Source: a virus
IMG/VR virus record: IMGVR_UViG_3300031552_000001
Location: 96,001-160,000 of that record
DNA length: 64,000 bases
Strand: one strand, 5' to 3'
Shown: positions 1,686-64,000 of the stretch, piece after piece
Layout: each line of letters opens with the position of its first letter
Position numbering within the stretch: position 1 is the first letter of the stretch
Made by a program: the position numbers and the translations under genes
The notes under the pieces: model-generated
Seen by the model: only the letters and a program-made list of their open reading frames with translations
Database searches by the model: none
Told to the model about the DNA's origin: nothing

Positions 1686-4049
1686 GTGACCTCTTACCGA
1701 TACTTAGTTAAGGACCCAGACAAGGCGTATATATCAAACAATCTGTGGCTCCCCAAAAAATCAATAAACCAGTCAGTAGTAAAAGCTGCCCTTACCTTCT
1801 CTCTCAATGATGAAGAAGTGGTAGTAGACGAGCTTACCGGGGAGGCCATAGGCACAAAAACAAAAACCTTACGATTATGGGACGAGACAGAGCGTCACAT
1901 TATCACCCCCAAAGAATTTATTTCTCCTAGCAACTACCCCAACTTCCCGTGTGAATTTGAACAAATACCTCCTCCAGATTTCGAACAGGTACGAATAGAT
2001 GATCGTATAGAGCTAAGAAATGAAGAGCAACAAAGAGCGTACGAGGCCCTGTTACAAGACGGAAACGGCACACTGCACGTAAGTTGCGGCAAAGGGAAAA
2101 CGGTAATCGCGCTAAAAGTTGCCGCCACCCTTAAAGTGCCCACTATTGTGATAGTAAACAGCACGGCCTTACTTGAGCAGTGGAAAGAGGAAATAACAAA
2201 ACACTTGGGAGTACAAAGCATAGGGGTTCTACAAGGGCAACTACAGGACTGGAAAGGGCGCCCTATCGTGTTGTCTATGGTTCACACTCTTTCAAATAGA
2301 AGAAAGATGTGGTCTTCGGACTTCAAGCGTTACTTCGGGTTAGCGATATACGATGAGTGCTTTACTTCTGACACTTTAATTGACGACACTCCCATACAAA
2401 AAATTAGGGTAGGTGATACTGTTAGCAGTTACTCTGAAGCAGATGAAAGCCTATGCCGAAAAAAAGTGCTGCGTGTATTCAAGAAAAAACCCTTCAAACT
2501 CATAAGAATACAAGCCGAAGGCAAAAACGTAATTTGCACCCCCAATCACCCTTTCTTGACTGAAAAAGGGTGGGCTAATGCGGAGAACTTGACATGCGGG
2601 TCTGTGGTGCTATGCGCCATAAAGCATCGAAGCTTTATAGGAAAGGAAGGAAGGCGTGACCCCTCCAAAAGTCATAGTCTCTGTTTGCAAAGAGTGCGGA
2701 ACTCAAACAGTAAAAACGGGAAAAGCTGGGTTAGAGCAAGTGAGAAGGGGCGCAGTGTACTGCTCCCGACAATGCGCTCAACGTCACCTACATCGGGAGA
2801 GATCAAAGAGGATGTCAGAAACAAATCGAAAATACGCCTCAGAGAGAATGAAAAAGAACAACCCGATGAAAAGAAAAGAAGTGCGCGAGAAAATGAAATC
2901 TACACTAAGGGCGATGGGGTGGAAGCCCCCTGTTCAAGGAGGGAACGGAAGAACTCCCCCGGCGGCTCAACAGCTTTTAGCTTGCGCCCTGGGCTGGCCC
3001 ATGGAAGTAGCTATTGGGATTCAAAACGCGAGGGCAAAGCACAGCGCGAATGTATACAAACTCGATATCGGGAACAGGGCGTTGAAGCTGGGAATAGAAG
3101 TAGACGGGTATTCCCATTGCTCCCTTACGAGAAAAAAGCAAGACAAGAAGAAAGAGAAAATCTTAGCTGGGTTAGGGTGGACAGTATTGAGATTCTCGAA
3201 CCGGGAAGTGACGGAACATTTGGCGGATTGTGTCCAGACGGTTTTGTCTACAATCTCGAAGTTGAAGATACGCACACCTACTTAGCCAATGGTTTTGTAG
3301 TTCATAATTGCCACCACATGTCAGCTCCTGTTTTTGTACTAAGTGCTGACATGTTTTACGGAAAAAGAATTTCCCTGACTGCTACTGCTTCCAGAACAGA
3401 TGGACTAGAGACCGTTTACCAGTATCATCTGGGCAGAGTGATTCACAAAAATTTGTCGCAAGACCTTATTCCTCATACAGTTTTTCATGTGCTTCACTGG
3501 AAAATGCCTCCTGAGCACAAAAAGCTGGTCATAGATCGGAATAAAGAAGTAAGTACCCCCCGAGTTAGGACTTACCTTGGAAAGCTAGAGTGGAGAAATA
3601 ACCTAATCTACGAATACCTGGCCCAAGATCTAAAAAACGGAAGAAGTATTTTGGTGCTGAGCCACAGCGTAGACCATGTGGAAGTATTGCATAACTACCT
3701 GAGTGCGGCCGGGGCAGGTATGATTGTAGGAAAAACCCCTCAAGAAAGCCGAATGGCTATTTTGAGAAATGGTAATCCCGTATTTGGTACTTTTCAGTTA
3801 GCTAGAGAGGGATTAAATAAGCCCTCTCTAGATACCCTGTATGTGGTCACCCCTTTCAATAACTCCAACGACCTGCAACAGGCTTGGGGGCGAATTCAAC
3901 GAAGACATGAGGGTAAAAAGGAGCCTCTAATCAGGGTTTTTGAAGACCGGGCGTTTCAATGCTGTTTTAGGTCTTGCCGAGGACTACGAAACGTTCTTAA
4001 GAAGTTCGGCTATCCGTACACGAAAGAGGAGTGGGTAAAGTATGAGTGA
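1686..4049 (+). CDS. superfamily II (DExH, UvsW/Rad25-like) helicase, intein-containing
   Basis: Walker A SCGKGKT; motif II YDE|CHH split by the intein; motif III LTAT; motif VI QAWGRIQR. Confidence 0.93.
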   Translation: MTSYRYLVKDPDKAYISNNLWLPKKSINQSVVKAALTFSLNDEEVVVDELTGEAIGTKTKTLRLWDETERHIITPKEFISPSNYPNFPCEFEQIPPPDFEQVRIDDRIELRNEEQQRAYEALLQDGNGTLHVSCGKGKTVIALKVAATLKVPTIVIVNSTALLEQWKEEITKHLGVQSIGVLQGQLQDWKGRPIVLSMVHTLSNRRKMWSSDFKRYFGLAIYDECFTSDTLIDDTPIQKIRVGDTVSSYSEADESLCRKKVLRVFKKKPFKLIRIQAEGKNVICTPNHPFLTEKGWANAENLTCGSVVLCAIKHRSFIGKEGRRDPSKSHSLCLQRVRNSNSKNGKSWVRASEKGRSVLLPTMRSTSPTSGEIKEDVRNKSKIRLRENEKEQPDEKKRSARENEIYTKGDGVEAPCSRRERKNSPGGSTAFSLRPGLAHGSSYWDSKREGKAQRECIQTRYREQGVEAGNRSRRVFPLLPYEKKARQEERENLSWVRVDSIEILEPGSDGTFGGLCPDGFVYNLEVEDTHTYLANGFVVHNCHHMSAPVFVLSADMFYGKRISLTATASRTDGLETVYQYHLGRVIHKNLSQDLIPHTVFHVLHWKMPPEHKKLVIDRNKEVSTPRVRTYLGKLEWRNNLIYEYLAQDLKNGRSILVLSHSVDHVEVLHNYLSAAGAGMIVGKTPQESRMAILRNGNPVFGTFQLAREGLNKPSLDTLYVVTPFNNSNDLQQAWGRIQRRHEGKKEPLIRVFEDRAFQCCFRSCRGLRNVLKKFGYPYTKEEWVKYE
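2358..3308 (+). mobile_element. intein (317 aa) inserted in helicase motif II
   Basis: Starts with Cys (CFTSDTLI), block B CTPNHPFLT, block F VYNLEVEDTHTYLANG, ends VVHN followed by Cys+1. Removal restores DECHH. Confidence 0.95.
2656..3285 (+). CDS. DUF559/Vsr-like (PD-(D/E)xK) endonuclease nested in the intein in the +1 frame; putative homing endonuclease
   Basis: GTG preceded by AGGAAGGAAGG; Zn-finger CKEC...CSRQC; basic helix SERMKKNNPM; catalytic-like YKLDIG...GIEVDGYSH and DKKKEKILAGLGWTVLRFSNREV. Confidence 0.85.
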   Translation: MTPPKVIVSVCKECGTQTVKTGKAGLEQVRRGAVYCSRQCAQRHLHRERSKRMSETNRKYASERMKKNNPMKRKEVREKMKSTLRAMGWKPPVQGGNGRTPPAAQQLLACALGWPMEVAIGIQNARAKHSANVYKLDIGNRALKLGIEVDGYSHCSLTRKKQDKKKEKILAGLGWTVLRFSNREVTEHLADCVQTVLSTISKLKIRTPT

Positions 4050-10761: not shown

Positions 10762-13078
10762 ACTTGTTCCTCCTCCTGTATACATAGATACCGACGAAAG
10801 GGCTCAGGATCTTCTTCATACGTCGTTGAGGAAAGTAAAAGAAGAGCCCAAAAGCCTCATTGGTTTTGATACTGAAACTCACGGTAAGAAGATTCCCATC
10901 AAAATGGGCACGAAATGCCCTTTAGACTGGATGTCGGATACCGTAACCTTCTGGTCTTTGTCCTTTAGATACAGAGGCGAGCCTTTCCGTTTTTGTATAC
11001 TAGGAGAATACCTACAGTACTTCTCAAGTCTACTAGAGAACCCTGAAGCGTGGCTTGCCTGCTGGAACGCTAAATACGACGCCCACGTGTCATACAACAG
11101 CGGCATAAATATTTGGAACGCAAACGTAATCGACGGCTTAGCGCTAGCAGGACTTCACGACGAGAACAAAAAGCAAAGGGGTTTAAAGGTCTGCGCACGA
11201 GATTGGGCAGGCTTGTCCATGACGAAATATCAGGACCTCTTTCCAAACAGAGATAAATTCGGAAGGAAAATAAAGGAATTCGAAACCTCATTGTTAGACC
11301 TAGTAGAAGACGGGTACGCTGAGCAGGTAGCTGATTACGCATCCTACGACGCGTTTTGCCATTTAGAAACAGTTGAGTGGGTAATCGCTCGTCTTCAAAA
11401 TACCCTCATAGACGCTGATTATAGTTTGTGGGATTACTACTTGAGCATGGAGAAGGACGTCACCGAAGTTCTGTGGAGGATGGAACGTCGAGGCCTCTAC
11501 ATGGACTTAGACTATCTGAGGTCTCAAGTGCCTCTTATAGACGAAGAGATGCTGAAGATAGAGTCGGACATTAACAATGCAGCTAACGGCGTGATCAACA
11601 TAGGTTCTCCTGTTCAGCTTACCAAGTTTTTCTTTGGCAGCGAGATTGATGGAGGGCTAAATCTAACTCCCATAAAAATGACAAAAGGCGATAAGCCTTC
11701 TGTAGATAAAGAAGTGTTAGAGCTATTATCTAGTTCAGGTTATGACGTTGCTAAGAAAATTTTGCGGCACCGACATCTAGCTAAAACAAAAAGCACCTAC
11801 TTAACTTCTTTGATAGCGTTAGCCGAGCACTACGGGGACTGTCGCATCCACCCCAACTTCAACCAGTTTGGAGCTGCCACAGGTAGGTTTTCTACCGATT
11901 CCCCGAATAGTCAGAACTTTCCGAGGCCTGACAATGACGAATTTGGTATCCGAAAGGCTTTCATAGCTCCTCCAGGGCATAAACTGATTGTAGCTGACTA
12001 CGAACAGCTTGAAATGAGAATTATGGCTCATATGTCTGGGGACAGGTCTATGATTCAAGCCATACTGGAAGGCAAAGACTTGCACTCATTCACTGTGTCT
12101 AGAATGGTCCCTAACGTTACATATGAAGAAGTAGACGAAGCAAAAAACCAAAAGGATAAAGACAAGTCGGCCATGACAGGCGAGCAAAAACACCTGCTGC
12201 AAGCACGACAAGACAATAAAGCCATCGGTTTCGGTATTATCTACGGAGCAGGCCCGCCCAGAATAGCTCAAGCAATAGAAATCCCAGAAGAAGATATCGA
12301 GAAACGTATAAAGAGACTGACTGCTGAAGAACTGACGGCCTCTAGTGTCGACATAAAGAGGAAGAGGACTCTTAGCGGCAGAATAGAAAGAGCCATTCAA
12401 AATAATCCGCTGTTGACTCCAGAAAAAGCCACGGTCTTAGTGGCACGTCAGTCCATAGCGGCAGAAAAAATACAGGCGTACTTCGATACCTTTCCTGGTG
12501 TCTATGAGTACATGAAAGCCGTCCCTGAAGAATGTAGACAAACAATGGAATGGTCAGAAGCCTTCCACGGGGAAGCGTCCAAGCCAAAAGGTAGACCAAA
12601 AGGCTCTAATGGCGACCTTATAGATGACGGAGTCGAATACGACTGGGACATGGATTATTGGATTCCAGGTCAAACAGAAAAGCTTACCAGAACAGGTCAT
12701 TTGAAGAAGTTCGGGTATGTAAAAACCCTGTGCGGGCGATACCGGCGCTTAGAGGATATCAACCATACCAACTACCGATTCAAGTCTGAAGCAGAAAGGC
12801 AGGCAGTGAATACTACGATTCAAGGCTCTGCCGCTGACATCACTAAAGCGGCAATGCTAAGGATAGAAAAGAACCCTGAACTAAACCTTATGGGGGTGCA
12901 GCTACTTAATCAAATACACGACGAGTTAGTGCTACAAGTCCCAGAAGAAAATGCCGAAAGAGCTCTGCCTATAGTGAAAGAGTGCATGGAGCATCCATTC
13001 TCAAAGGGGAAAGAGGCTTTGGTAGTCCCTATTCCTTCCGACGCAAAAATAGTCAATTCGTGGGCAGAGGCGAAGTAG
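10754..13078 (+). CDS. polA: family A DNA polymerase (3'-5' exonuclease + polymerase, no 5'-3' exonuclease)
   Basis: ExoI FDTET, ExoII WNAKYD, ExoIII YASYDA; motif A ADYEQLEMR; motif B RQDNKAIGFGIIYG; AERQAVNTTIQGSAAD; motif C QIHDEL. Confidence 0.96.
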   Translation: MFKLVPPPVYIDTDERAQDLLHTSLRKVKEEPKSLIGFDTETHGKKIPIKMGTKCPLDWMSDTVTFWSLSFRYRGEPFRFCILGEYLQYFSSLLENPEAWLACWNAKYDAHVSYNSGINIWNANVIDGLALAGLHDENKKQRGLKVCARDWAGLSMTKYQDLFPNRDKFGRKIKEFETSLLDLVEDGYAEQVADYASYDAFCHLETVEWVIARLQNTLIDADYSLWDYYLSMEKDVTEVLWRMERRGLYMDLDYLRSQVPLIDEEMLKIESDINNAANGVINIGSPVQLTKFFFGSEIDGGLNLTPIKMTKGDKPSVDKEVLELLSSSGYDVAKKILRHRHLAKTKSTYLTSLIALAEHYGDCRIHPNFNQFGAATGRFSTDSPNSQNFPRPDNDEFGIRKAFIAPPGHKLIVADYEQLEMRIMAHMSGDRSMIQAILEGKDLHSFTVSRMVPNVTYEEVDEAKNQKDKDKSAMTGEQKHLLQARQDNKAIGFGIIYGAGPPRIAQAIEIPEEDIEKRIKRLTAEELTASSVDIKRKRTLSGRIERAIQNNPLLTPEKATVLVARQSIAAEKIQAYFDTFPGVYEYMKAVPEECRQTMEWSEAFHGEASKPKGRPKGSNGDLIDDGVEYDWDMDYWIPGQTEKLTRTGHLKKFGYVKTLCGRYRRLEDINHTNYRFKSEAERQAVNTTIQGSAADITKAAMLRIEKNPELNLMGVQLLNQIHDELVLQVPEENAERALPIVKECMEHPFSKGKEALVVPIPSDAKIVNSWAEAK

Positions 13079-57078: not shown

Positions 57079-60000
57079 CTATTGAGCTACCACAGGATTA
57101 GCTTCTTTGACGTCCTGTGCAGCCTTTCCTAAATCGTCTCCCAAAACCTTTCCTACAGCCGTGACAAATCGTTCATTGGCTGCGATATATTTCATTTGCG
57201 ACTCTTCGGCAGCCGTGCGTTGTGCGCCTGCTCCTTGCCCCAATGCCCCCGGAGCCGCTTTAGCTAAAAGCTCTTTTAGTTCCTTAATTTCTCCCCCTGA
57301 TATCTTACCGCCGCTTTTTAGCATCTCATCTACCCTAGCGGCGATTTCTGGGCTTTGAAATAAGTCCACTCCGCTGCTACCTACCAACCTATTCTTAAAC
57401 TTCTCTAGGGCCCTCTCGTCCATTTCTCCCATGTTACCTATTGCTGCTAATCTACCGAGTTGCTGCCCAACCATTCCGCCTCTTCCATACAGCAACAAAT
57501 CTATTTCTTTTCTTCCCATTTTTTGGGAGCTTGCAATTTCACCTAACGCCTGTTCACCGGCAGTAATATCCCCCGCAGCGAAGCTACGTCTTGCACCCTC
57601 CAACCTACTAGTGATCCCCGCTCTTACGCCACTTATTCCCTTAAGAGGGCCTTGAGACCCAGCAATAGACTGCATTCTAGAGCGGCGCTCGTCTTCGTAC
57701 TGCTTCCGCTGAACTGCGGACACGTTACCCATGCTTTGGAGAAATTGCTTTTGCTCTTCTGGAGAGGAAGATTTAAGAAAGGCAGCTATCTTCTCCGCAG
57801 CAACATCGCCGCTACTCACAGCGGCGGCAAACGGGTTGTTAGGGTTGTCCGGAGCTTCCCCGTTAAGGATTTTTGCATACTCTTCGATGTCCTTTGCCAA
57901 AAACTTGTCCGAACTCATTGCCGCTTGAACATCAGATTCATTTATTCCTCGAGACCCTAGATATCTGGCGGCCTCTCCCACCGCGCCGATTAGGGTCCCT
58001 GGAAGAGTGCCAATTCCTCCTGCCAATAGTCCAGAACCACCTCCAGCAACGGCGCCCTTCCCTACCGCCTTTAAGAACCCACCAAACCCAAAGCCACCAG
58101 CGGCTTCAGTCATAGCTTCAATATTATCTTGCCGAAATTCCTCTATCTCCTTCGGGGTGGTGGGGATTTGTATGTCCCTAGCCATCTTTCCGAAGTCCAT
58201 AGCGTGTTTGGCATTTTCGTAACCGAGCTCCTTTTGTCCGGCGGCAATAACGTCTAGTTCCGCTTCCGCAGAGTCCACACCGCCAGGGGAAGCTTCCTCA
58301 AGAAGTCTCATGGCTTTAGCCGCTTCAGGGTCCTGCTTCAACAGCCTGGCTATGGCTTGCCGGTGCTTAACTGGGTCTTTTTTAAGCTTCTCCAGCATCG
58401 CCGAATTTCTGGGTGAGTTGTAAATAGCCCTCATTCTAGCGCTGACTGTATTTAGCGCAGCTCTCTTACCTTCCGTCTCACCGCCAAAAAGGTCCCCCAA
58501 CGAGGCGTTGGTTGCTCTAGTATAGGATCGACGAGCCACCCTTTCCGCATTCTCTAAATTAGCGACGAGCCCTCCTCCTACTGCTACATCACCTACTCCG
58601 GCTTCTCCTGTTCTAGTCTCCATGCCGGCAGCCATCAGCGCCCTAGTTTGGGGAGTCAAAGAACTTCCACCAAATGGGCCGACCCCCAACAAGGCGGATG
58701 CCCCTCCTATTACCGACCCGGCTACCATTCCGGGCACCATTCCAAGTGAGCCCGCTGCGGTTCCTGCCGCCACTCCCCCCATAAACCTAGAGCCAAACCC
58801 CTCCTCCCCAATTCTACCTATAGCTCCGCTAAACATATCCCCTTGCGCAAAAGACTGGCCTACGTTACGAATACCCATGGACTCCCAAGAGGCCGTACTG
58901 CCGCCCCCAGATCCCGCTATCATAAATCTCTGGTTCATCGTCATTCTAGGGATAGCCTTTGTTCTACCCATTATATTGTTAACGGCTCTATCTGTAGCGT
59001 CGCTTAACTGTGCGGCTATGCCCTCTCCGAGCTCGGATAAGGGACGAGTAATCCCTTCCCGATAGGCGTGCTTAACTGCATCTCCTAGCCCCGCCAAACT
59101 TCTGTTTCTTCTCTCGTCGAGACGCCTAAAGGAGTCATCCAAAGCGGCAGCATTTGTTCTATCTTGTTCTGCCTGGATTCTAGGCAGGTCCTTAATCAGT
59201 TTCTGAACCATATCAGCCTGGCGCTGATTGGACCCAGTAATGAGCTGAATGAACCTATTCTGAACGGGATCAGAAGCCCCGGCATAACCGGCTTTAACCA
59301 TAGCCTGCTGTATTCCCTGGGCCATACCAGCAATGCCGCCTTGCTGAGCCATAGACTGGCCTAATTGGTCTGCGCGATTAAAGAAGGAAACAGCTAGGGA
59401 TTTGTTGCCTTGGATTCTTCCTTTTCCTCTTCTCTGCAACTCCTCAACACCAATTTCACCCCTTTGGAATCGAGCTAAAAGCTCCTCATCCATTTGGCCG
59501 GTGAATTCACCCCCTTTAATTTCCCCCAGTCCGGCCATCATTAAACGGCCCATGCCCGTTTGGCCAAAGCCAGACATTACCTGCTGAAGCCCCCCCGCAA
59601 GCATTCGTTGCCCCTCAGCGCCCCCTACACCTCCTGTGAAGTTACGTATATCCTCTTGAGAAAACACCCCAGCTCTAGTTGCCGCAGATACTTGCCCAAA
59701 AAGTTCTTGCCCAAGCCGCGCGCCAGAGGCTAACCGCCCTCCCATCTGATACGACATCTGAGCGCCTTGCTGCATTGCGCCCACCATAGCTCTAGCCCCT
59801 CCAGGCCCAGCCGCTTTTGTCGCGGCAGCAGTCCCTAAAACATCCTGCGCCGTCCACATCCCCATTTGTTGAAGCTGATTAACTAAAGGAAGGGCTTCTT
59901 CAAGAGTGGTGCCTAAAACCTCTGCCATAGTTCTTGTTTGACGAACTATATTCTTGAATCGAGTCTTGAATTGATTAGCATCCCCTACCCCCTGCAACAT

Positions 60001-60759
60001 TCCCATAGACCCGGCTCGGTCCATAAGAGTGCGCATCTCTTTCATGCTAGTCATAACGTCTTCTGACGCTAATTCATGCATAAAAGAGGTTATGTTCTTG
60101 ACCATACCCGCGGCGGGTTTGCCACCTAAACCAGCTCCTGGTTGTCCAAACTGGGGCTCGAAATACTGAGAAGACATACGACGAACATCCTGAAAATTCT
60201 GCACGCCTTCATATATATTCTCCCCAACTTGCCCTATTGCCTTACCTGCTAGATAATAGGGAACAGCTGCCGTTGCGGCACCGGCTATGCCGCCCCCAAG
60301 AGCTCCCAAACCTGCTCTAAGGCCGCCACTAGAAAACGCCCCAGCAATATTGCCAGCCGCGTACCTCAAACCCATCCCCTCGGCGCCCCCCATAACGCCC
60401 GCTCTCATGCCCAAAGTCCCCCCTGTGCCCGCACCAAAAGCCCTACTCACTCCCGTAAAAGGGTCGAGTAATCCTAGAGGGTTTCGGTACCCTAGAAGGC
60501 TCGCTGCCATGGTACCGCCAGCCGCGATACCCGGAATGGCCATTGCAGCCCCTCCAGCTAAACTGGTCCCCAAATCTGGAGCAGAGGGGTCCATATGCAT
60601 ACCGTAAGAAGGAGCCGGAACAGGATAGGGATTAGACATCGAGGAAGACGCGCCGCCTCCTCCCAGCACTCCTACTTGATGGGCAAATGAAATCTGGTTG
60701 GAGAACATTACTTGCTGTCCTCCAACTAGTCCTGAAATCTGAGTACTTGATAACGCCAT
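57079..60759 (-). CDS. tape measure protein
   Basis: 1226 aa, Gly/Ala/Met/Gln-rich helical with hydrophobic Gly-rich stretches; heads the tail operon. Confidence 0.75.
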   Translation of the reverse strand: MALSSTQISGLVGGQQVMFSNQISFAHQVGVLGGGGASSSMSNPYPVPAPSYGMHMDPSAPDLGTSLAGGAAMAIPGIAAGGTMAASLLGYRNPLGLLDPFTGVSRAFGAGTGGTLGMRAGVMGGAEGMGLRYAAGNIAGAFSSGGLRAGLGALGGGIAGAATAAVPYYLAGKAIGQVGENIYEGVQNFQDVRRMSSQYFEPQFGQPGAGLGGKPAAGMVKNITSFMHELASEDVMTSMKEMRTLMDRAGSMGMLQGVGDANQFKTRFKNIVRQTRTMAEVLGTTLEEALPLVNQLQQMGMWTAQDVLGTAAATKAAGPGGARAMVGAMQQGAQMSYQMGGRLASGARLGQELFGQVSAATRAGVFSQEDIRNFTGGVGGAEGQRMLAGGLQQVMSGFGQTGMGRLMMAGLGEIKGGEFTGQMDEELLARFQRGEIGVEELQRRGKGRIQGNKSLAVSFFNRADQLGQSMAQQGGIAGMAQGIQQAMVKAGYAGASDPVQNRFIQLITGSNQRQADMVQKLIKDLPRIQAEQDRTNAAALDDSFRRLDERRNRSLAGLGDAVKHAYREGITRPLSELGEGIAAQLSDATDRAVNNIMGRTKAIPRMTMNQRFMIAGSGGGSTASWESMGIRNVGQSFAQGDMFSGAIGRIGEEGFGSRFMGGVAAGTAAGSLGMVPGMVAGSVIGGASALLGVGPFGGSSLTPQTRALMAAGMETRTGEAGVGDVAVGGGLVANLENAERVARRSYTRATNASLGDLFGGETEGKRAALNTVSARMRAIYNSPRNSAMLEKLKKDPVKHRQAIARLLKQDPEAAKAMRLLEEASPGGVDSAEAELDVIAAGQKELGYENAKHAMDFGKMARDIQIPTTPKEIEEFRQDNIEAMTEAAGGFGFGGFLKAVGKGAVAGGGSGLLAGGIGTLPGTLIGAVGEAARYLGSRGINESDVQAAMSSDKFLAKDIEEYAKILNGEAPDNPNNPFAAAVSSGDVAAEKIAAFLKSSSPEEQKQFLQSMGNVSAVQRKQYEDERRSRMQSIAGSQGPLKGISGVRAGITSRLEGARRSFAAGDITAGEQALGEIASSQKMGRKEIDLLLYGRGGMVGQQLGRLAAIGNMGEMDERALEKFKNRLVGSSGVDLFQSPEIAARVDEMLKSGGKISGGEIKELKELLAKAAPGALGQGAGAQRTAAEESQMKYIAANERFVTAVGKVLGDDLGKAAQDVKEANPVVAQ

Positions 60760-60816
60760 TTGGGGTTAAGCTACCACTGATAGACACCCAAGAACACACC
60801 TTAGATGTCTGTTTCT

Positions 60817-60852
60817 AACCTAAAAATTGCACACCCATACTGGAATAAGAAA
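60817..60852 (+). promoter_or_regulatory. putative phage promoter, copy C (AACCT-N23-ATAAGAAA)
   Basis: Ungapped match to 21487-21522. Confidence 0.5.
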
Positions 60853-60902
60853 TATGAACAGAAGGCAATTATTGTCCTTCTACAACCTACCTGGAGTTTA
60901 AA

Positions 60903-61739
60903 ATGTCAGTCCGCAACCTTGAGATCCTTGCAAGCAATTACGCCTTTTCATTTCCAACAAAAATGCTCACAGCTATCAAAGAAAACGCAGTGTCGGGCCA
61001 AACAATAAACTATCGCACAACATTAGGCGGCAGAGCTGACATAGAGCAGAAGCGCCTAAGCTCTGTTCTAAATATGCGCCCGGTACCTGGAGTCATAGGT
61101 ATTTCTGTCCGGCCAGACCCAGAGTTTGTTGAAATGTACCGGCAAGCAGGAATATCTCTTGTCATCATCGACGAAGAGGCAGAAGGGGCGTCCACTATCG
61201 CAGTCGATAACTACAAGGGCGGGGTATTGGCCGCAAGAAGATTTCTTGAATCTGGAAAGAAAATCCCAGGCATCGTTTGCGGAAGAACAGAAGTCAAAGG
61301 TGGGATCAACGCAGTACAAAGACTACAAGGGTTCCAAGACACTCTGGAAAGCGCTGGAAGAGAGAAAGTTCTTTCTCAAAACATCAAACAAGTCCTAGAT
61401 TACTCTTACCAGGATGGGATCGATTCCATGCAGGAATTCTTCCGTCAACAAAACCCACCTGACTTCATATTCTCCGCAGCAGGCGACGATTGCGCCGTCG
61501 GAATATTGAGAGCCTCTGTGAATTTTGGACTTAGTGTTCCAAAGGACCTCTCGGTCATGGGCTTCGATGATCTGGAAATGGCAAAAATGACTACTCCCAC
61601 ATTAACGACGATACGGCAGCCTATAAAAGAAATTGCTGCAAGAGCGTATGGCATAGCGTCTACTATGGGGAATAGGTACATAGACAGCCCAGAACAGATA
61701 GTACTGGAACCAACTCTTGTAGAAAGAGACTCGGCGTAA
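60903..61739 (+). CDS. LacI/GalR-family ligand-binding domain lacking the HTH
   Basis: VDNYKGG, GLSVPKDLSVMGFDD, PTLTTIRQPIKE, PTLVERDS; in-frame TGA at 60855 excludes an upstream HTH. Confidence 0.9.
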   Translation: MSVRNLEILASNYAFSFPTKMLTAIKENAVSGQTINYRTTLGGRADIEQKRLSSVLNMRPVPGVIGISVRPDPEFVEMYRQAGISLVIIDEEAEGASTIAVDNYKGGVLAARRFLESGKKIPGIVCGRTEVKGGINAVQRLQGFQDTLESAGREKVLSQNIKQVLDYSYQDGIDSMQEFFRQQNPPDFIFSAAGDDCAVGILRASVNFGLSVPKDLSVMGFDDLEMAKMTTPTLTTIRQPIKEIAARAYGIASTMGNRYIDSPEQIVLEPTLVERDSA

Positions 61740-61750
61740 CCCAAAACAAC

Positions 61751-61781
61751 AAAGGCCTCCTAACGGGAGGCCTTTTTAGCT
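61751..61781 (+). terminator. intrinsic terminator
   Basis: AAAGGCCTCC-TAACG-GGAGGCCTTT then TTAGCT. Confidence 0.85.
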
Positions 61782-61783
61782 GT

Positions 61784-61810
61784 AAAAATAAGCCAGCATA
61801 TGGGTATAAG
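61784..61810 (+). promoter_or_regulatory. putative phage promoter, copy D (AAAAAT-N11-TGGGTATAAG)
   Basis: Same 10-mer and A-tract spacing as copy A. Confidence 0.5.
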
Positions 61811-61813
61811 ACG

Positions 61814-61920
61814 AATGTTGGAACTACGAACGTGGAGCGCGACCTTGATGGTACGCAGCAAGACCGTCGTAGTGTCTGGTGGCGACATAAAGAGGCCTCA
61901 GCTACCGGACTCCAACAATT
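61814..61920 (+). ncRNA. candidate structured ncRNA (three-way junction)
   Basis: P1 61816-22/61911-17, P2 61823-29/61867-73, P3 61874-83/61901-10; two G-U pairs favour the plus strand; begins just after promoter D. Confidence 0.5.
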
Positions 61921-62218
61921 ACCCTCGCCCCAAGAATCCGTGCTTCTTTTTTATCTCCTCTTGCTGCTGTTGATTTGCGTCAGCTCCTTCTGTAACAGCT
62001 TCGACTTCTGTCTTATCTTCAGTCTTACAAAGTATGCGAGCGTAGTACCCCCTGACCGCATTCCTACATCGTCTACACAGATCTCCAAACGACGTCTTCT
62101 CGTTTGAGAATGTAGCCTCAAATTCTGGGCCTGCGGGAGAAGGCAACTCAGATACGTTTTGGTTCTCTTTTCTCCCGCACCTATCGCACACTACTTCAAC
62201 TACATCTCTTCTGGCCAT
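61919..62218 (-). CDS. small CxxC protein (MARR..VCDRC...DLCRRC)
   Basis: AGGAG SD before ATG 62218; two CxxC pairs. Confidence 0.7.
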   Translation of the reverse strand: MARRDVVEVVCDRCGRKENQNVSELPSPAGPEFEATFSNEKTSFGDLCRRCRNAVRGYYARILCKTEDKTEVEAVTEGADANQQQQEEIKKKHGFLGRG

Positions 62219-62268
62219 TTTAGCTCCTCTTATATAAGTTACAGACCTTTTGGTTCTCATGCCTCTGA

Positions 62269-62511
62269 TTATGTATTTTGTGGGTATGTGATGTGGCCGC
62301 GCAATTTCTGATATATGTATCCTTCCACAGCCAGCCTTTCAATCTTCACCAAACCATCCGAGTAGTCAGGATGAAGAACCATACTAGCCTCGAAAGCTTC
62401 TACCTCTTTTCGGCATAAGACTCGCAGAGGAAGAGCATTACCCCTATCAGACTCTTTCTTAGCTTCAGTCAGCTCTGACTCTGAAAAAGGAAATTCTAGT
62501 TCAAGCTTCAT
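62269..62511 (-). CDS. hypothetical protein
   Basis: AAAAGGAG SD; 80 aa. Confidence 0.7.
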   Translation of the reverse strand: MKLELEFPFSESELTEAKKESDRGNALPLRVLCRKEVEAFEASMVLHPDYSDGLVKIERLAVEGYIYQKLRGHITYPQNT

Positions 62512-62590
62512 ACGGGCTCCTTTTAGCTAGTTTCCATAAGATCGCTAGCCTATACATATTTTCTATGTTGGACATATTCAAGGAGGAATT

Positions 62591-62923
62591 ATGGGTTACC
62601 CAATAGCTCATCTGCCTTATCAGCGTACAGAAAAAGCAAAAAATGTTGTTTCAATTACAGTACCAAGAACCTGTTGGAAGCCGTGCGGGCCCGATGACGA
62701 CATTACAGCATGCTTGACGTGCTGCCTCACGATAAACGGTACAAACTACCATTTAACGGCGTATGCCGTAATGACTAATTCAGAGCTAGGACAAACTGCT
62801 GTTCACGCTCAATTTAACGACGAAGTAGACAAAATATACGAGTTAGGAAGACCAGTCGGGCCCTTCTGCACAACAGAAATTGACGGGCGAGACTACCTCC
62901 TAACTATAATCCCATACTGCTAA
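62591..62923 (+). CDS. hypothetical protein
   Basis: AAGGAGG SD; 110 aa. Confidence 0.7.
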   Translation: MGYPIAHLPYQRTEKAKNVVSITVPRTCWKPCGPDDDITACLTCCLTINGTNYHLTAYAVMTNSELGQTAVHAQFNDEVDKIYELGRPVGPFCTTEIDGRDYLLTIIPYC

Positions 62924-63331: not shown

Positions 63332-64000
63332 ATGAGAAGATTCTTACAGCATCAAGGAAGAACAAGTGCACCTCAGTTATGGGAAATAGAAGTATTCGGC
63401 AACGCCGTAACACTAACATGGGGCCAACTTGGCGGCGCTATGCAACACACCACTCAAACCTTCAGTGGCGTAAATATAGGTAAAGCCAATGAAAAGACTC
63501 CTATACAGGTAGCACAAGAGTGGGCCGATAGACAAATACTTCTACGTACCAGAAAAGGGTACGTAGAAGTCGACCTTGAGACAAATAACCCAATAGAGGA
63601 GGCAGCCTCCTCTGAAATAGACTGGGAGAAGGAGCTGCCTCAGAATCTTCGGTTCTTCAAACCACAAAATAGTCTTAATGCCTACTGCACGAAACTTCTA
63701 CAAGAAAAGAAAGCTACACTCCTGCGAAAAAGAGACGGGATGATGCACATCCTCTTAGTAAAAGAGGACGGAGATGTGGCCGTATACTCATCTACGCTTC
63801 AGGCGTGCCATAAAGACGAGCCTGAAATTCCGTGGGCCAGAAGATACCCTCATCTAGTAAAAGAGGTACGAGATTTAAATTTACCGGGCGGGACTGTGTT
63901 GTTGGGGGAGTTATGTACTGCCGCATGTCACGGGCACAAGGACACATTCGGCATGCCCGTAGACGATTACAATTACGTAAGCACCATCACGAAATCCCTG
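63332..64000 (+). CDS. WGR-domain ATP-dependent DNA ligase, partial
   Basis: Manual translation: LWEIEV...VTLTWGQLGG (WGR-like), RKGY, motif I LRKRDG, motif III VLLGEL; open to the window end. Confidence 0.75.
   Translation, partial: MRRFLQHQGRTSAPQLWEIEVFGNAVTLTWGQLGGAMQHTTQTFSGVNIGKANEKTPIQVAQEWADRQILLRTRKGYVEVDLETNNPIEEAASSEIDWEKELPQNLRFFKPQNSLNAYCTKLLQEKKATLLRKRDGMMHILLVKEDGDVAVYSSTLQACHKDEPEIPWARRYPHLVKEVRDLNLPGGTVLLGELCTAACHGHKDTFGMPVDDYNYVSTITKSL

Follow-up and report, generated by a model that had tools for sequence, protein, structure and literature searches.

Few structured RNAs of phages have good comparative support, and the role of most of them is unknown. The pRNA of phage phi29 is roughly 120 nt long, folds around a three-way junction and multimerises by loop-loop pairing, while the OLE, GOLLD and ROOL RNAs reach sizes of roughly 500-800 nt or more. 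Structured antisense RNAs of phages and plasmids include CopA, RNA I, lambda OOP and P22 sar, and the bacterial Y RNA YrlA has a tRNA-like module without an anticodon loop. Two smaller structures are also relevant here: the hammerhead, a three-way junction in which the unpaired core reads CUGANGA ... GAAA ... and a cleavage site is present, and the kink-turn, in which a canonical helix is followed by a 3-nt bulge, tandem sheared G-A/A-G pairs and then a non-canonical helix. GOLLD sometimes carries tRNAs in a linker region. The pRNA has been named a biologically relevant RNA homomer (Kretsch et al., bioRxiv 10.1101/2024.12.08.627333), and according to a 2026 preprint RNAs under 200 nt form defined oligomers via kissing loops, GNRA contacts and kink-turns.

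Here we describe a family of small structured non-coding RNAs (ncRNAs), not previously described, from a group of uncultured large phages. The window, i.e. the whole 64,000-nt stretch of DNA that was analysed, comprises bases 96001-160000 of a 192,137-bp IMG/VR virus record. The DNA polymerase of this phage is at most 32% identical to that of any deposited phage, and by this measure of sequence the lineage is without close cultured relatives. The following features of the window are referred to below:

57079-60759, minus strand: gene of the tape-measure protein (TMP).
60903-61739, plus strand: LacI-type sensor domain without the DNA-binding head (Pfam Peripla_BP_3/1/4).
61751-61775, both strands: bidirectional terminator hairpin, read from the sequence, with a terminator-like site on the minus strand and a U-run following on the plus strand.
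61782-61810, plus strand: promoter-like motif, GTAAA(A), 16 nt, GG-T-ATAAG.
61816-61917, plus strand: ncRNA core of 102 nt, a three-way junction of P1, P2 and P3, based on folding energy, z-score, covariance-model match and covariation.
61816-61822, plus strand: 5' strand of P1, pairing with 61911-61917.
61823-61873, plus strand: P2 arm, with the basal helix 61823-29 with 61867-73.
61837-44 with 61850-59, plus strand: distal helix of P2 with the apical loop UUGAU.
61874-61910, plus strand: P3 arm, with the stem 61874-83 with 61901-10, two G-U pairs and a 17-nt loop.
61919-62218, minus strand: zinc-ribbon (ZnF) gene of 99 aa, based on homologues, with the motifs MARRDVVEVVCDRC...CRRCR...KKHGFLG.
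61932-61952, plus strand: possible 3' end of the RNA, a weak AAGAA/UUCUU hairpin followed by a U-run, based on the fold.

An initial annotation, made from the letters of the window alone, had proposed a perfect three-way junction at this place, and all its coordinates and pairings were found base for base in the sequence. P1 is formed by TGTTGGA (61816-22) and TCCAACA (61911-17), P2 by ACTACGA (61823-29) and TCGTAGT (61867-73), and P3 by GTCTGGTGGC (61874-83) and GCTACCGGAC (61901-10), two G-U pairs included. P2 is prolonged as a hairpin of GCGCGACC, UUGAU and GGUACGCAGC, and TATAAG is located at 61805-10, 5 nt ahead of P1. When the plus strand of 61810-61925 was folded with RNAfold, the same three-way junction was obtained with a minimum free energy of -43.4 kcal/mol (z = -3.73), and none of 200 dinucleotide shuffles folded as well. 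The reverse strand was weaker, with -37.0 kcal/mol (z = -1.78). That no unpaired base lies at the junction, as had been pointed out in the initial annotation, was true for this phage but not for the family: an A-rich unpaired linker (AA/AAA) separates P1 from P2 in the relatives, and the junction-closing A-U pairs 61822-61911 and 61823-61873 are not kept there. The part of P1 that is conserved across the family consists of 61817-61821 with 61912-61916. A covariance model of the family matched the window with 96 bits (E about 1e-28), and the RNA was found to be single-copy both in the window and in the whole 192-kb genome. It measures about 105 nt; were its 3' end at the next U-run, the length would be up to about 140 nt.

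The fold was then set against known RNAs. No family of Rfam 15 covered the three-way junction when 61000-62800 was scanned at E up to 10; the only matches were sub-threshold and were due to the terminator at 61751-75. Nor was the fold matched by the C4 and ctRNA models of Rfam. The region is not a tRNA, in agreement with the initial annotation, since ARAGORN found none in the window and RF00005 gave no match in 61000-62800 at E up to 10. Likewise, the hammerhead core is absent from the window sequence, and hammerhead models gave no match, with cut-offs of E up to 10 for the window and of E up to 0.1 for ten relatives. The CUGAUGAG that occurs in one relative (L013) is not conserved across the family. 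Among the ten relatives scanned against Rfam, only the tRNA match of one variant (L020, see below) and two chance snoRNA matches were obtained.

Direct DNA searches did not lead to homologues. A blastn search of the region against deposited phages found nothing, exact 17-mers of the RNA in IMG/VR gave either nothing or two chance matches within a tail-fibre-like gene, and the ZnF and LacI-like proteins, used as single queries in IMG/VR, had no relatives there. Homologues of the RNA were therefore sought via the ZnF protein. In a protein collection four ZnF relatives were found, two of them with DNA (L005 and L006), and in both loci the gap after the ZnF stop codon holds a recognisable antisense copy of the RNA with the promoter motif. 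A search with an alignment of ZnF proteins then yielded 20 metagenomic and 2 viral loci. Enough downstream DNA was available for 21 loci, L005 and L006 among them, and all 21 showed the same order of ZnF stop, RNA and TMP start, with the RNA always antisense to the ZnF and TMP genes. Covariance models built from the alignments described below recovered the RNA in 17 sources, namely the window and 16 loci, and every match was on the strand antisense to ZnF. Divergent versions were recognised by eye in L014, L028, L020 and L023, and L025 was assigned only tentatively, from its promoter motif and an AGACC motif.

Other routes to homologues gave no further members. On a 416-kb contig that was reached via a 122-aa neighbour protein, the sole model match lay inside an ORF with P1 unpaired and was rejected. 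No ZnF relative was found in bacterial genomes. A degenerate pattern of the RNA gave 15 matches in bacterial genomes, all weak (at most 21.7 bits) and regarded as chance; the best of them sits within a 433-aa ORF with many pairs broken. The same pattern found nothing in IMG/VR.

In this phage the stop codon of the ZnF gene (61919-21) abuts the 3' side of the RNA, and the RNA is antisense to a transcript continuing out of that gene. The AlphaFold model of the ZnF protein consists of four strands and a helix, with pLDDT above 84 for residues 1-60. No informative match was found in PDB sequences, in Foldseek searches (PDB, BFVD), in Pfam or in PHROGs, and on the basis of the model the protein is a generic zinc ribbon. 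In the relatives no gene lies between the promoter and the TMP start, which are about 30-60 nt apart (about 190 nt in L005). This phage is the only one, compared with the 21 related loci, in which a LacI cassette with a terminator is located between the RNA and the TMP gene; the RNA is intact in spite of this separation. The cassette (window 60760-61781) consists of a promoter motif, the ORF 60903-61739 and the terminator at 61751-75, which closes the insert just upstream of the RNA promoter. Since cassette and RNA agree in orientation and in type of promoter, the gap between RNA and TMP looks like an insertion site for accessory cassettes.

Two further observations were made on the same record. 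The ORF 63332-64000 (plus strand), truncated to 223 aa by the end of the window, contains LLRKRDGMMH, a sequence similar by eye to the KxDG motif for adenylation in ATP-dependent DNA ligases; the ORF had no Pfam match. Outside the window, an identical stretch of at least 70 nt occurs at both record ends (genome 41-110 and 192040-192109) and includes a GGTATAAGA promoter-like box. Such a duplication points to a terminal repeat or to the overlap of a circular assembly; in IMG/VR the record is classed as linear.

Whether homologues conserve base pairs or codons was decided in favour of the base pairs. In an alignment of 8 members made by MAFFT from sequence alone, 87% of the cells were paired and 15 of the 27 pairs showed a compensatory change, with a covariation score of 0.413 compared to 0.134 or less when the pairing partners were slid by 1-3 columns. 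The model-based alignment comprised 19 rows (17 members and two sub-threshold rows of L028); here 92% of the cells were paired, 20 of 27 pairs had compensatory changes, the score was 0.496 versus 0.112 or less with slid partners, and 0-1 of 500 shuffles reached any of these measures. Model-based alignments are biased towards the structure of the model and towards G-U pairs. Compensatory changes were found in 4/5 modelled pairs of P1, in 6/8 pairs of the basal helix of P2 (97% of cells paired) and in 7/8 pairs of the P3 stem. The P1 variants include UGUUGG/CCAACA, UGUCAGG/CCUGGCA and UGGUCAGG/CCUGAUCA. Thus, as far as the alignments reach, all three helices covary. Folding of single sequences gave P1, P2 and P3 in most members, the exceptions being L007, L009, L010, L023 and L027.

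Coding of the region was investigated by six-frame translation of all members, and no frame was open or conserved throughout on either strand. The leaderless 52-aa ORF from 61815, which had been offered as an alternative to an ncRNA, is a shorter form, in the same frame, of a 57-aa plus-strand ORF (61800-61973); it could not be upheld, as stops and frameshifts break the frame in relatives, and the plus-strand ORF has stops in most of them. On the minus strand an ORF beginning 'MSP...' has 42 codons in this phage and is frame-shifted in the closest relative, L005. It has 5-15 codons in L006, L009, L015, L017 and L018 and is absent in L013, L022 and L027. On the mRNA strand of 61760-61888 (minus), the palindrome of the P3 loop together with the ACAUAAAG complement resembles a ribosome-binding site with its AUG (GAGG-n8-AUG UCG CC). 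That AUG opens a short ORF of 5-47 codons, not conserved in sequence, in about 12/17 members, which may be a translated upstream ORF before TMP or simply a by-product.

We concluded that the plus strand of the window is the RNA strand, for which no expression data exist. The assignment rests on five independent lines: the asymmetry of G-U and A-C pairs, stability, the conserved promoter motif, the restriction of this motif to the plus strand genome-wide, and the terminator-like ends together with the tRNA mimic of L020. Read in the RNA sense, the model-based alignment contained 44 G-U versus 9 A-C combinations and the sequence-only alignment 26 versus 5. The plus sense was more stable in 15/17 members, by 4.1 kcal/mol on average; L005 and L027 were exceptions that fold better on the other strand, and the P3 region of L006 forms better pairs on the opposite strand. 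The initial annotation of an ncRNA of about 105 nt on the plus strand, of unknown class, is in this way supported by base-pair conservation, by strand asymmetry and by the lack of an Rfam or tRNA match.

The same annotation had placed the RNA behind its own promoter. This found support in the comparative evidence, not in a generic sigma-70 scan, which gave no call because TATAAG ends in G. By regular expression the motif was found in 20/21 loci at a fixed distance from P1; the one locus without it, L014, is on a contig that breaks off within the upstream region. In the family the consensus reads (T/C)GAAA, about 16-17 nt, GGnATAAG, then about 5 nt and then P1. Across the 20 loci ATAAG is invariant and GAAA and GG are nearly so. 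In the form RAAA-N16-20-G(G/A)nATAAG, 10 sites of the motif were counted across the 192-kb genome; all are on the plus strand and none lies within a long same-strand ORF; several are 38-84 nt before ORFs. The sites in the window are at 722, 60822, 62392 and, as a variant, 61782. One site lies upstream of the LacI cassette, and another precedes the three tRNA genes (genome 180321-180593) by about 320 nt. A particular sigma factor of the host, or the one encoded by the phage, may recognise the motif.

The 3' end is not defined in this phage. A terminator scan made no call for 61932-61952, a hairpin that sits inside the last codons of the ZnF gene, and there is no clear terminator after P1. In the RNA sense of the relatives, either a U-run follows P1 or there is a separate hairpin with a U-run. 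L012 has a terminator-like site in the RNA sense at the 3' end of ZnF. The C-terminal ZnF peptide KK(R/H)GFLGG is encoded by a self-complementary stretch, CCCAAGAAGC-nnn-GCUUCUUGGG, seen at 61922-61955 of the window and at the ZnF 3' ends of L006-L010, L014 and L028; it comprises 9-10 bp in relatives and is weaker in this phage. Conservation of the peptide may partly reflect an RNA hairpin, possibly a terminator of the antisense ncRNA. Transcription as well as both the 5' and the 3' end of the RNA are thus inferred, without expression data.

Beyond the helices, two parts of the fold are conserved. In the internal loop of P2, GUGGA (61832-36) faces AAGACC (61860-65), and in our model tandem G-A pairs are formed by G61835-A61863 and A61836-G61862, with A61860-61 as a bulge. 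GGAGCG and AAGACC are nearly invariant, the 5' side being GUGGA-GCG and the 3' side GC-AAGACC. Compared with a kink-turn, GA (61835-36) lies opposite GA (61862-63) between two helices, and the bulge has 2 nt, not 3. In the absence of 3D or probing data we describe the P2 internal loop only as resembling a kink-turn. The tip of P2 is a GNRA tetraloop in L007-L010, L012 and L021.

The second part is the loop of P3, which across the family consists of (G/A)ACAUAAAG followed by a G/C-rich 8-nt palindrome. In this phage ACAUAAAG is at 61885-92 and the palindrome GAGGCCUC at 61892-99. Six perfect palindromes were found at the same loop position among the members (GGGGCCCC, GAGGCCUC, GGGCGCCC, GAGCGCUC, GGACGUCC and GAGUACUC), each with a P of about 0.01-0.04 against shuffled loops. 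The loop of L017, GGGUGCCC, is self-complementary through G-U pairs only, and in L012, L024 and L020 no open loop holds a palindrome of 8 nt. At the centre of the palindromes the dinucleotide is GC, CG or UA, and to convert one palindrome into another, symmetric double changes are required that include the two adjacent central bases. As adjacent central bases cannot pair within one loop, this switching fits the criterion for an intermolecular kissing loop. The same criterion was used for the symmetric intermolecular kissing loops of OLE and GOLLD (Kretsch et al., bioRxiv 10.1101/2024.12.08.627333). Judged on sequence only, the P3 loop meets this comparative criterion for symmetric kissing-loop homodimer RNAs, among which the retroviral dimerisation site is also counted; it asks for an exposed hairpin loop whose self-complementarity is preserved by covariation. 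A palindrome that is kept while its sequence changes suggests loop-loop dimerisation, which remains putative. Elsewhere in the genome the palindrome shows no enrichment (4 copies versus 2.4 expected). Only one further copy of the loop sequence exists, at 12350; it was considered as a target in trans and rejected, being on the same strand and inside the DNA polymerase gene.

Several members deviate from this plan. In L020 a tRNA-like module (1750-1819, minus strand; Rfam tRNA, 42 bits) takes the place of P3. Its D and T arms are normal, the anticodon stem is capped by a GAGA tetraloop and there is no anticodon; ARAGORN made no call for it. The module is a tRNA mimic nested in an ncRNA. Longer variants of 150-210 nt occur in L015 (1774-1982), L017 (1771-1979), L018 (376-525) and L022 (1768-1899), all on the minus strand of their loci and all with a separate 3' hairpin and U-run. 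L015 and L017 have an extra domain between P3 and the 3' strand of P1. In L015 the palindrome of the P3 loop, GGACGUCC, is repeated in the extra domain, and in the corresponding place of L017 there is GGCGCUCU, with which the loop AGGGUGCC is able to pair. This suggests that L015 and L017 can form the loop contact in cis.

The structure and the position of the RNA are conserved, it is non-coding and of plus sense, and its loop stays palindromic. As the best explanation of the whole we propose a plus-strand ncRNA of a new family which has its own promoter, folds into a three-way junction, dimerises and acts in trans; we give this reading a probability of roughly 60%. The RNA would be transcribed from the plus strand of the window by the conserved promoter (GAAA, about 17 nt, GGnATAAG), a class of promoter that would also precede the tRNA cluster and small accessory cassettes of the phage. 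P1 would join both ends of the RNA, P2 would be a long arm and P3 would present the palindromic loop. This loop could then pair with the same loop of a second molecule in a symmetric kissing loop, giving a homodimer or a higher oligomer, and the RNA would act in trans, as a folded RNA or RNA-protein particle, not only by base-pairing with the overlapping mRNA. The homodimer is our best mechanistic guess, at roughly even odds. Action in trans as a folded RNA or RNP is inferred from the intact state of the RNA after the insertion, from the features that look like tertiary motifs and from the tRNA mimic that can stand in for P3. As a partner of the RNA the ZnF protein is plausible, and no protein partner has been shown. 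The biological role of the RNA is unknown. A bolder version is held only tentatively and is by us considered less probable than its opposite: a miniature self-assembling phage RNA that forms a dimer or larger assembly with a kissing loop, a kink-turn-like bend, a GNRA tip and an exchangeable P3, maybe together with ZnF in tail or late-gene expression.

Antisense control had been named in the initial annotation as another possibility, and this part of it still stands. A cis-antisense regulator would pair with the ZnF-to-TMP intercistronic mRNA, or act by promoter interference, and lower or time the expression of the tape-measure protein; its stem-loops would provide stability and the first kissing contact with the mirror-image structure of the mRNA. 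Many structured antisense RNAs of this kind are known. In every relative the RNA is opposite the ZnF-to-TMP junction, and its promoter is at the above short distance from the TMP start in most of them, so that a purely cis-antisense role cannot be excluded. However, in this phage a cassette and a terminator part the RNA from TMP and all its features are kept. Moreover, antisense complementarity holds for any sequence and hence leaves the palindromic loop unexplained, as it does the conserved G-A loop, the GNRA tips and the exchange of P3 for a tRNA mimic. We consider cis-antisense action on the ZnF-to-TMP transcript unlikely, but an alternative to be taken seriously. That the mirror structure functions in the minus-strand mRNA, as a processing site or translational coupling device between ZnF and TMP or as a short upstream ORF at the conserved AUG opposite ACAUAAAG, is a weaker one and in our opinion improbable; what we call the promoter would then be something else. 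The mirror fold does form in the window (z = -1.78), L005 and L027 fold better in that sense as does the P3 region of L006, and the 5' half of the palindrome with its AUG resembles a ribosome-binding site in about 12/17 members. Yet the excess of G-U over A-C (44 to 9, and 26 to 5 without a model) and the greater stability of the plus sense in 15/17 members are opposed to it, the promoter motif is strand-specific genome-wide, the U-runs, terminator-like sites and L020 tRNA mimic are in the plus sense, and the mini-ORF varies from 5 to 47 codons, is frame-shifted among close relatives and is absent in L013, L022 and L027.

The remaining two explanations do without a functional RNA structure. 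If the element acted at the DNA level, the palindrome would be the operator of a dimeric protein, or a cruciform, and the RNA structure would be incidental. The 8-bp pattern GRRNNYYC could suit the site of a dimeric protein, and a zinc-ribbon protein is encoded alongside, but a short operator does not account for three helices that covary over more than 50 positions. In addition, the G-U versus A-C asymmetry is a property of RNA, copies of the palindrome in the genome do not exceed chance and GGGUGCCC is no DNA palindrome; we therefore regard this explanation as very improbable. Still less can be said for a small protein, encoded by the 57-aa plus-strand ORF (61800-61973) or the 42-aa minus-strand ORF (61760-61888), to which we give next to no weight. 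Both ORFs are open in this phage, but the frames of the homologues carry stops or are shifted, the peptides show no conservation other than that imposed by the conserved nucleotides, and no Pfam family matches.

With about 105 nt the RNA is small enough for direct biophysics, and it has a fixed genomic partner, the zinc-ribbon gene beside the tape-measure gene. If the dimer is true, the RNA would provide a natural and compact example of RNA quaternary structure, from viruses whose hosts are uncultured, and a route to study what such RNAs do in infection. If, instead, the antisense explanation is true, this large-phage lineage would have a conserved regulator of tail-gene expression that is new.

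Compared with the known systems, our RNA shares with the antisense RNAs lambda OOP, P22 sar, P1 C4, CopA and RNA I that it is short and structured, has its own promoter and is both convergent with an operon and complementary to its transcript. The tandem G-A loop, the GNRA tip, the palindromic loop and the survival of the RNA after its uncoupling from TMP would be unexpected for a simple antisense RNA. YrlA and other bacterial Y RNAs also combine a stem that joins the ends with modular arms, and the tRNA-like module of YrlA is similar to the L020 variant. Membership in this group was rejected: no TROVE domain was found in the genome, with positive controls, and no Rfam Y-RNA model matched. Unlike the Ro-binding helix of Y RNA, P1 varies freely in sequence here.

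As GOLLD and ROOL, the RNA is phage-encoded and of unknown function. A hairpin loop that switches between different palindromes is found in OLE and GOLLD and also here, and to the occasional tRNAs of GOLLD corresponds the tRNA mimic of one member, L020. In contrast to OLE, GOLLD and ROOL, which have roughly 500-800 nt or more and five or more contacts, the RNA has about 105 nt and a single candidate contact, its oligomerisation is not shown, it adjoins tail genes and not a tRNA island, and Rfam does not match it. The pRNA of the phi29 family is encoded at the genome end of small podoviruses, a different context, and no match in sequence or model to it was obtained. It uses two different complementary loops and forms a ring on the portal, whereas one self-complementary loop would lead to a dimer. 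The two RNAs are nevertheless alike in size, in the three-way junction and, as proposed here, in loop-loop pairing. Finally, the RNA combines three recently named signs of self-assembly, i.e. a kissing loop, GNRA contacts and a kink-turn-like motif, and the 2026 preprint on oligomers of small RNAs makes the self-assembly reading testable, not proven.
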